From Candidatus Polarisedimenticolia bacterium (GTDB taxonomy: Bacteria; Acidobacteriota; Polarisedimenticolia; Gp22-AA2), in NCBI GenBank assembly GCA_050747445.1, contig JBOGOE010000229.1, positions 2,511 through 66,510 on the forward strand: a stretch of 64,000 nucleotides of DNA, in the 5' to 3' direction. The position numbers and the translations under genes were made by a program. Positions 34,578-36,068 of the stretch are shown here, piece by piece. Under the pieces are notes generated by a model, which was given only the letters and a program-made list of their open reading frames with translations, did not search any database and had not been told where the DNA came from. The first letter of the stretch is position 1, and the number at the start of each line of letters is the position of its first letter.

Positions 34578-36068
34578 ATGGTGTCGCTCCCCAGGGACCT
34601 GCAGGCCCTCCAGGAGGAGATCGAAACCCACGCCCGCTCCTACGGCCTGGATTTCTTCCCGGTCATCTTCGAGGTCCTCGACTACCGGGGATTGAACCAG
34701 GTCGCGGCCTACGGCGGCTTCCCGACCCGCTAACCGCACTGGCGCTTCGGGATGGAATACGAGTACCTGACCAAGTCGTACGCCTACGGCCTGTCGAAGA
34801 TCTACGAGATGGTGATCAACAACGACCCCTGCTACGCCTACCTGCTGGAGTGCAACTCGATCGTCGACCAGAAGCTGGTGATGGCCCACGTCTACGGTCA
34901 TTGCGATTTCTTCAAGAGCAATCTCGCGTTCTCGAAGACGAACCGCAAGATGATGGACGAGATCGCCAACCACGCCACGCGGATCCGGCGCTACATGGAC
35001 AAGCACGGCGTGGAGACCGTCGAATCGTTCGTCGATACCTGCCTCTCGCTCGACAATCTGATCGACCCGCATTCGCCGTTCATCGTGCGCGAGCGGACGC
35101 CGCGGGAGGAGGAGGACGACGCCCGGCCGGTGGTGCGGCTTCTCAAGAGCAAGTCCTACATGAACAGCTTCATGAACCCGCCGCACGTGATCGAGGCGCA
35201 GCGCAGGAAACTGGAGGAGGAGGCAAGCCGGCGCAAGCGCTTCCCCGAGGATCCGGTGCGGGACGTCCTGAAGTTCCTCATCGACCACGCGCCGCTGGAC
35301 AACTGGCAGCGGGACATCCTGGCGATCGTGCGCGAGGAGGCCTATTACTACGCCCCCCAGGCCTCGAGCAAGATCATGAACGAGGGCTGGGCCACCTACT
35401 GGCACTCCAAGCTGATGACCGAGAAGGTGCTCACCGATGCCGAGGTCGTCGATTACGCCGACCATCACTCGGGCACCCTGGGGGGGCGGACCGGCCGGCT
35501 CAACCCCTACAAACTCGGTCTCGAGCTGTTTCGCAACATCGAAGAGCGCTGGAACAAGGGGCAGTTCGGCAAGGAGTACGACCAGTGCGAGGATCTCGTC
35601 GAGCGGGCCCGCTGGGACCGGAAGCTGGGGCTGGGCCGCGACAAGATCTTCGAGGTGCGCCGGCACGGCACCGATGTGACCTTCATCGACAACTACCTCA
35701 CCGAGGACTTCTGCCGCGAACACAAGATGTTCATCTACGATTTCAATCCAAAGACCGGGATGTACCAGATCACCGACCGCGATTTCCGCAAGGTCAAGCA
35801 GCGCTTGCTGTTCCAGCTCACCAACTTCGGCCAGCCCTTCATGTACGTCGCCGACGGCAACTTCCGCAACAAGGGAGAGCTGTTGCTGCAGCACCGGTAC
35901 GAGGGCGTCGAGCTCAAGCTCGACGAGGCGCGCGAGACCCTGCGGAACATCCAGAAGATCTGGACCCGGCCGGTCAGTCTCAACACCGTCGTCGACGAGA
36001 AGCCCAGGCGCATCGCCTACAACGGCACCGAATTCGAGGAGAAAGAGATCTCCGACAAGGTGGCCTGA
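34578..36068 (+). pseudogene. spoVR: SpoVR/YcgB family gene interrupted by in-frame TAA (34731..34733) after 51 codons; downstream segment 34752..36068 is intact
   Basis: N-terminal segment [66 protein letters not shown]... is in the same frame (34578 and 34752 both mod 3 = 0). The conserved SpoVR motif GGFP[13 protein letters not shown] has Tyr where the stop lies (TAC/TAT to TAA). Confidence 0.7.

Follow-up and report, generated by a model that had tools for sequence, protein, structure and literature searches.

The genes yeaG, yeaH and ycgB, that is, prkA, yeaH and spoVR in the nomenclature used here, are tightly co-fit in six bacteria, and mutants in them show improved growth with particular nitrogen or carbon sources (Price et al., bioRxiv 10.1101/072470). 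In a laboratory evolution study of P. putida, ycgB mutations were recurrent, and the nonsense allele yeaG Y463* arose in a clone that had no ycgB mutation (bioRxiv 10.64898/2026.07.20.739708). Taken together, these laboratory data show that null alleles of the module can be selected.

Here we describe a spoVR gene from an uncultured Acidobacteriota population in which a TAA stands at codon 52. As the gene reads in this sequence, it is a pseudogene or null allele of the SpoVR/YcgB family. The case is similar to the laboratory losses of yeaG and ycgB in that the same module is affected, and a nonsense allele was also among the adaptive changes there. It differs in that those selections were made in Proteobacteria. 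A further likeness is to young bacterial pseudogenes and segregating nonsense alleles. As in those, one point mutation inactivates the gene, the sequence downstream shows no further decay, another strain of the species has the intact allele, and dN/dS is low over the long term. Unlike those cases, however, the present allele is known from a consensus alone and is accompanied by a second lesion in the adjacent gene.

Gene Layout and Family Identity

The window, by which we mean the whole 64-kb stretch of DNA that was analyzed, has an overall GC content of ~70%. Within it prkA, yeaH and spoVR are adjacent on the plus strand and in module order (Table 1). The same order is found in L089, a syntenic 244-kb JGI contig that is 91.5% identical to the window over 21.5 kb. 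Much closer is a metagenome-assembled genome (MAG) of Candidatus Polarisedimenticolia (Acidobacteriota), GCA_050747565.1, referred to here as the sister MAG, whose 3,084-bp contig L001 aligns to positions 34441-37524 at 99.77% with no indels. The prkA gene, for which the sister MAG annotation places the start at 31342 (679 aa, product identical to MGH9797321.1), shows no indels relative to L089 and three SNPs relative to the sister MAG, all synonymous. The exact YeaH protein is on record as MGH9749860.1 and MGH9797320.1, and the four SNPs that separate yeaH from the sister MAG are likewise all synonymous.

The GC content of the prkA-yeaH-spoVR block (window positions 32001-36000) is 62-63%, compared with 69-74% in the flanks. 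Possible reasons are the amino-acid composition of conserved proteins or horizontal acquisition.

The yeaH gene ends with TAG at 34571-34573, and 4 nt further on ATG 34578 opens a frame of 51 sense codons that is closed by TAA 34731-34733. Downstream of this stop the unchanged frame reads [12 protein letters not shown]..., has its first start at ATG 34752 and ends at TGA 36066-36068, for a total of 497 codons. An uninterrupted full-length SpoVR frame of about 490-510 aa is thus not present, given the TAA at codon 52. When Tyr is put back at this codon, the Pfam SpoVR profile (PF04293) matches residues 6-418 over profile positions 5-406 of 407 (E = 2.6e-140; 468 bits against a gathering cut-off of 27), and SpoVR_C (PF24755) scores 35.4 bits against 27.6. 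Because the homology crosses the stop without a break, we regard the two frames as one interrupted gene and not as two chance ORFs. Every residue of the signature motif GGFPxRYPHWxFG is encoded, apart from the Tyr codon itself. The gene therefore agrees with other SpoVR/YcgB members in its end-to-end profile match once Tyr is restored, in the motif, in a length of 496 aa, and in lying 4 nt from its neighbor in the usual prkA(yeaG)-yeaH-spoVR(ycgB) order. It departs from them in the frame broken at codon 52, and the module departs from the usual one in that a fourth gene, encoding ParA-like, DnaJ and HTH_25 domains, overlaps the spoVR stop in this clade.

A preliminary description of this DNA had given the yeaH stop, ATG 34578, the TAA, ATG 34752, the end at 36068 and the total of 497 codons, and all of these coordinates hold. 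It had also taken the upstream 51 codons for the SpoVR N-terminus, which the Pfam match across the stop bears out, and had placed the gene in a prkA-yeaH-spoVR neighborhood, where Pfam confirms both PrkA and DUF444/YeaH.

Table 1. Coordinates of features at the spoVR locus (window positions)
Feature	Position	Strand	Remarks
prkA (PrkA/YeaG-type AAA+ serine kinase), intact	31246..33381	+	AAA_PrkA E = 2.6e-93, PrkA E = 3.7e-92
yeaH (DUF444), intact	33467..34573	+	Pfam DUF444 E = 6.4e-84
Cluster of four SNPs	34513, 34534, 34552, 34582 (34513..34582)	+	separates two coexisting strain haplotypes
spoVR 5' piece	34578..34733	+	51 sense codons + premature TAA; codons 1-51 dN/dS vs L089 = 0.034
Premature stop TAA	34731..34733	+	at conserved Tyr52 codon; base 34733 = A here, C in L001
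spoVR 3' piece	34734..36068	+	100% identical to intact sister allele; restart ATG 34752 gives 438 aa
Downstream gene, first frame: ParA-like P-loop NTPase + DnaJ	36068..37545	+	Pfam CbiA, ParA, AAA_31, DnaJ
C7 run in Pro/Ala-rich linker, simplest frameshift site	37539..37545	+	C8 in L089
C-terminal HTH_25 domain	37546..37857	+	-1 frame relative to N-terminal part; E = 3.6e-22, frame of 36202

The Tyr52 Codon in Relatives

Several comparisons bear on the codon at which the frame is broken. The same-species contig L001 reads TAC at this site, so that the difference is C>A at 34733. Its SpoVR is an intact protein of 496 aa with a single residue (A2V) different from the repaired window protein. 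In spoVR the window differs from L001 at two positions only, and the 1,335 bp 3' of the stop are identical. L089 also encodes an intact SpoVR of 496 aa, with TAT at the Tyr52 codon. Six metagenome contigs exactly match the 41-nt flanks, and five of them carry TAC and one TAT. At the level of the family, the Tyr52 column holds Tyr in 119 of the 120 listed homologs and Phe in the remaining one. The motif was located in 80 of the fetched loci, of which 45 have TAC, 34 TAT and 1 TTC at this codon, and none of the 80 has a stop there. Since L001 has TAC and L089 TAT, and since the Tyr is conserved and no relative has a stop there, the TAA is private to this assembly. These comparisons show it to be a private C>A substitution at 34733 that changed TAC (Tyr52) to TAA and is limited to this assembly.

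The claims that the family has Tyr at the position of the stop (119/120 homologs), and that a single change from TAC or TAT to TAA splits a gene of 497 codons, are therefore well founded: L001 has TAC, L089 has TAT, and only two differences separate spoVR from L001. The preliminary description had proposed examining this codon in orthologous genes, and related loci have TAC or TAT in 79 of 80 cases with no stop. It had further considered that orthologs might start naturally at the MEYEYL position, in which case the upstream frame would be coincidental. This is not so. The 120 listed homologs are nearly all uninterrupted proteins of 492-510 aa, and those with reported coverage extend over at least 97% of the query, N-terminus included (one 725-aa entry is listed without a coverage value).

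Strain Haplotypes and the Age of the Lesion

Two contigs of the sister MAG, L088 (JBOGOD010000164.1) and L001, overlap at 34441-34679 and differ there at four sites, where L088 carries the alleles of the window and L001 the other alleles. One of these SNPs, at 34582, alters codon 2 of spoVR (Ala to Val). The overlap indicates that two haplotypes coexist at the spoVR locus in the sister MAG. Because L088 shares the window's alleles, the local haplotype of the window is real and present in a second assembly. L088 ends at 34679, which is 52 nt before the TAA, and gives no independent support for the stop itself. L001 in turn ends at 37524, 15 nt before the C7 run of the downstream gene, and the contig ends of the sister MAG do not fit one simple k-mer bubble.

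Relative to L089, dN/dS is 0.071 over the whole of spoVR; taken separately, codons 1-51 give 0.034 and codons 53-496 give 0.076. By these low values, both pieces of the gene were under strong purifying selection until very recently. The pattern of substitution leaves two options, a very young stop or one that is not real. In comparison with contigs L001 and L088 of the sister MAG, 11 substitutions were found: in prkA and yeaH 7 of 7 are synonymous, and in spoVR and the downstream gene 4 of 4 alter the protein, a contrast that we note with the caution that both counts are small. Of these four, A2V arose in the lineage of the window and R207K and M443L in that of the sister, and Y52* is evidently derived in the window, as no relative has a stop there. 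With L089 as the outgroup, and with position 34733, where L089 has T, left out, the derived alleles split 5:5 between the two lineages. With this even split and the synonymous changes in prkA and yeaH, the substitutions look like real polymorphism and not like noise.

A Second Lesion in the Downstream Gene

The ATG of the downstream gene shares the A of the spoVR TGA (TGATG), and the gene call on L001 has the same start. In the GC3 frame plot the coding signal of its first frame fades at ~37330-37545, and the HTH_25 domain follows in another frame (Table 1). The L089 counterpart is one uninterrupted ORF of about 600 codons, and in more than 100 relatives the three domains are joined in a chain of about 550-630 aa. 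When the C7 run of the window is extended by one C, the result is a 596-aa ORF that ends like that of L089. We infer that the frameshift may lie in this run, the simplest site. Across the linker, a poorly aligning Pro/Ala-rich stretch, the window is a net 19 nt shorter than L089.

Only in the closest clade, in which SpoVR is at least 75% identical (L001, L002, L003 and L089), does this gene follow spoVR directly; in L004-L081 it is not found at that place. The ParA-DnaJ-HTH_25 gene seems to be a fourth operon member specific to this clade. Several sources annotate it as 'FlhG'. The linker between DnaJ and HTH_25 (37400-37560) is hypervariable relative to L089, with low identity and a 9-nt insertion at 37439-37447, and it contains a C8 run (37416-37423) as well as the C7 run.

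Survey of the Window for Other Damage

Nineteen genes of the window are shared with L089, and apart from the two damaged ones the remaining 17 contain only indels that are multiples of 3. A further 19 ORFs were scanned, and domain coverage is complete in every one with a Pfam match; no other damaged gene was found among the 38 checked. The window has 24 homopolymer runs of at least 7 bases, and a frameshift falls at just one of them, the run at 37539. A GC3 periodicity scan in six frames identified TAA 34731 as the only stop in the 64 kb with strong same-frame coding on both sides. A homology-free GC3 scan for frameshifts missed the known one at ~37540 and is thus silent on the rest of the window; completeness of Pfam domains was used for frameshifts instead.

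Two weaker stop candidates at 55.8-56.3 kb were rejected. On the minus strand, the candidate stop closes the first of two exbD genes that stand in tandem and in a common frame; the plus-strand candidate is antisense to that exbD gene. The region concerned (55333-58711, minus strand) encodes a TPR protein, TonB and the two ExbD proteins, and the shared ExbD frame mimics an in-frame TAG stop at 55798-55800. A 117-aa ORF at 58881-59234 (minus strand) matches sigma-70 region 4 only. It was considered as a third broken gene and rejected, as no coding signal lies upstream of it in any frame; it seems to be a region-4 protein that stands alone, not part of a broken sigma factor.

The deposited annotation is informative as well. 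Protein accessions along the source contig are strictly sequential, with YeaH as MGH9749860 and GCS2 (glutamate-cysteine ligase) as MGH9749862. This leaves one accession for the two genes in between, which implies that at least one of them was deposited as a pseudogene. Exact protein look-ups found no record elsewhere of the broken products (51, 438, 419 or 572 aa).

Origin and Consequences of the Stop Codon

Four consequences of the stop had been put forward at the outset: a recent nonsense mutation, an N-terminally truncated SpoVR, read-through and a base-call error. The nonsense allele and the consensus error remain as competing accounts, and the other two are disfavored. Decoding of the TAA, whether through read-through by a near-cognate tRNA-Tyr or a suppressor tRNA or through reassignment of TAA in the whole lineage, appears exceedingly improbable. 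It is true that the stop stands in place of a Tyr codon, which differs from TAA at the wobble base alone, and that the next base is C: TAA-C is a comparatively weak termination context in E. coli. However, TAA ends the TonB gene of the window in the normal way, the TonB_C match (positions 2-79 of 79) stopping one residue before it, and no second in-frame TAA lies within coding signal anywhere in the 64 kb. Among the stops of 32 confident ORFs, TGA accounts for 25, TAG for 6 and TAA for this single TonB case. Nor is the stop conserved, with TAC in L001, TAT in L089 and no stop in any of the 80 loci. For the 93 nt that begin at 34728, folding is not better than for shuffled sequences (z = +1.40; an equal or better fold in 183 of 200 shuffles), which gives no sign of a stimulatory RNA structure. 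Rfam has no match at gathering thresholds in the window, and the 64 kb contain no tRNA genes, which is uninformative with regard to a suppressor tRNA. A programmed read-through or recoding site was rejected on the grounds that the stop is not conserved and that neither a downstream structure nor a special context is present; reassignment was rejected on the grounds that TAA does not recur in frame and is used as the TonB terminator. The suggestion of read-through is accordingly set aside, the in-frame stop being the only one of its kind.

It is also very unlikely that the split gene yields a working product, namely an N-truncated SpoVR made by re-initiation at ATG 34752, with or without the 51-residue peptide. 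Terminating ribosomes can re-initiate nearby (translational coupling), the ATG in question lies 18 nt past the stop in the same frame, and the 438 codons downstream are undamaged. Yet the restart product would lack residues 1-58, 16 of which are invariant in an alignment of 51 sequences (A19, G23, L24, D25, F26, F31, N40, A43, G47, P49, R51, Y52, P53, H54, W55 and G58), and R51, Y52, P53, H54, W55 and G58 belong to the signature motif of the family. None of the listed homologs with reported coverage is without this segment. Shine-Dalgarno pairing before 34752 amounts to -2.2 kcal/mol, which is the weakest of 10 starts, the nine gene starts ranging from -4.0 to -12.5. In an AlphaFold2 model of the intact protein, which is only moderate in quality (mean pLDDT 72, residues 44-79 below 50), the lost part supplies a helix (6-21), a strand (29-34) and a second helix (36-45). 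A functional truncated protein, as entertained in the preliminary description, is thus hard to reconcile with the weakest Shine-Dalgarno pairing and the loss of 16 invariant residues.

The same model was considered as a means of placing Tyr52 and was rejected for this use, as the motif region is of low confidence and the model is silent on the role of the residue. A sequence search found no solved structure of a SpoVR relative. The least confident part of the model is residues 44-79 (34707-34814), where conservation across the family is highest ([17 protein letters not shown]...), and these residues may form a loop that is ordered only by a ligand or a partner.

We consider it probable, though by no means assured, that the TAA is a genuine and very recent loss-of-function allele of the strain or haplotype represented by this contig. 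A tentative alternative, which we regard as possible but rather unlikely, is an assembly or consensus artifact. On this view the true codon would be TAC, and the A at 34733 would stem from a base-call, consensus or mixed-strain chimeric error; the neighboring frameshift would then likewise be a miscounted C run. In keeping with an artifact, the TAA is present in one assembly only and is private to one MAG contig. Two haplotypes coexist exactly at this site, and the sister assembly is fragmented at 34441-34679 and at 37524, so the stretches near both lesions may simply be hard to assemble. The 1,335 bp after the stop are unchanged, as would be expected of a gene that is really intact. C>A also matches a known type of damage artifact, being the classic signature of oxidative damage in library preparation, and the second lesion may consist of a single-nucleotide change within a C run, a typical consensus error given that homopolymer miscounts are a known error class. 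On the other hand, the rest of the contig is clean, with 0 other disrupted genes of 38 and no frameshift at any of the 23 other homopolymer runs, and prkA and yeaH differ from the sister strain by synonymous changes only, which resembles biology and not noise. The two lesions that were found sit in adjacent, translationally coupled genes, which speaks for a real allele; two random errors falling in adjacent genes out of ~38 would, by our estimate, be roughly a 1-in-20 coincidence.

If the allele is genuine, translation from ATG 34578, which is coupled to yeaH, would end after 51 residues. Any re-initiation at ATG 34752, which has no Shine-Dalgarno sequence, would give a protein minus 58 residues, half of the most conserved motif included, and we propose that SpoVR function would be lost with them. 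Early termination would also be expected to uncouple translation of the gene that follows, which starts within the spoVR stop. This downstream gene (ParA-like, DnaJ, HTH_25) carries a frameshift of its own. The distal half of the clade-specific four-gene operon thus appears to be switched off or decaying, with prkA and yeaH intact, and the adjacent frameshift might reflect relaxed selection, polarity or co-selection on this distal half.

Implications

What is seen in this well-known family is either a new knockout allele of the ordinary kind or a consensus error, and nothing in it lies outside known biology. In annotation, the spoVR of this genome is best labeled a pseudogene or null allele, or else flagged for a suspect base call, and it should not be taken for a short SpoVR variant or a recoding event. 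Caution is likewise needed in inferring a complete PrkA-YeaH-SpoVR module for this MAG.

By analogy with the laboratory results, it is conceivable, though improbable, that both lesions are real and were selected, such that a natural Polarisedimenticolia subpopulation would have silenced the distal part of its PrkA module and kept prkA and yeaH, with the homopolymer possibly serving as a reversible switch. If true, such a silenced distal module would parallel the growth advantage of yeaG, yeaH and ycgB nulls in the laboratory. The allele alone, even if real, would not explain the function of SpoVR. In accord with the laboratory evidence that nulls of the module can bring a benefit, it would, if real, provide a small natural example in which the PrkA kinase has lost YcgB/SpoVR, a partner that is still poorly understood.
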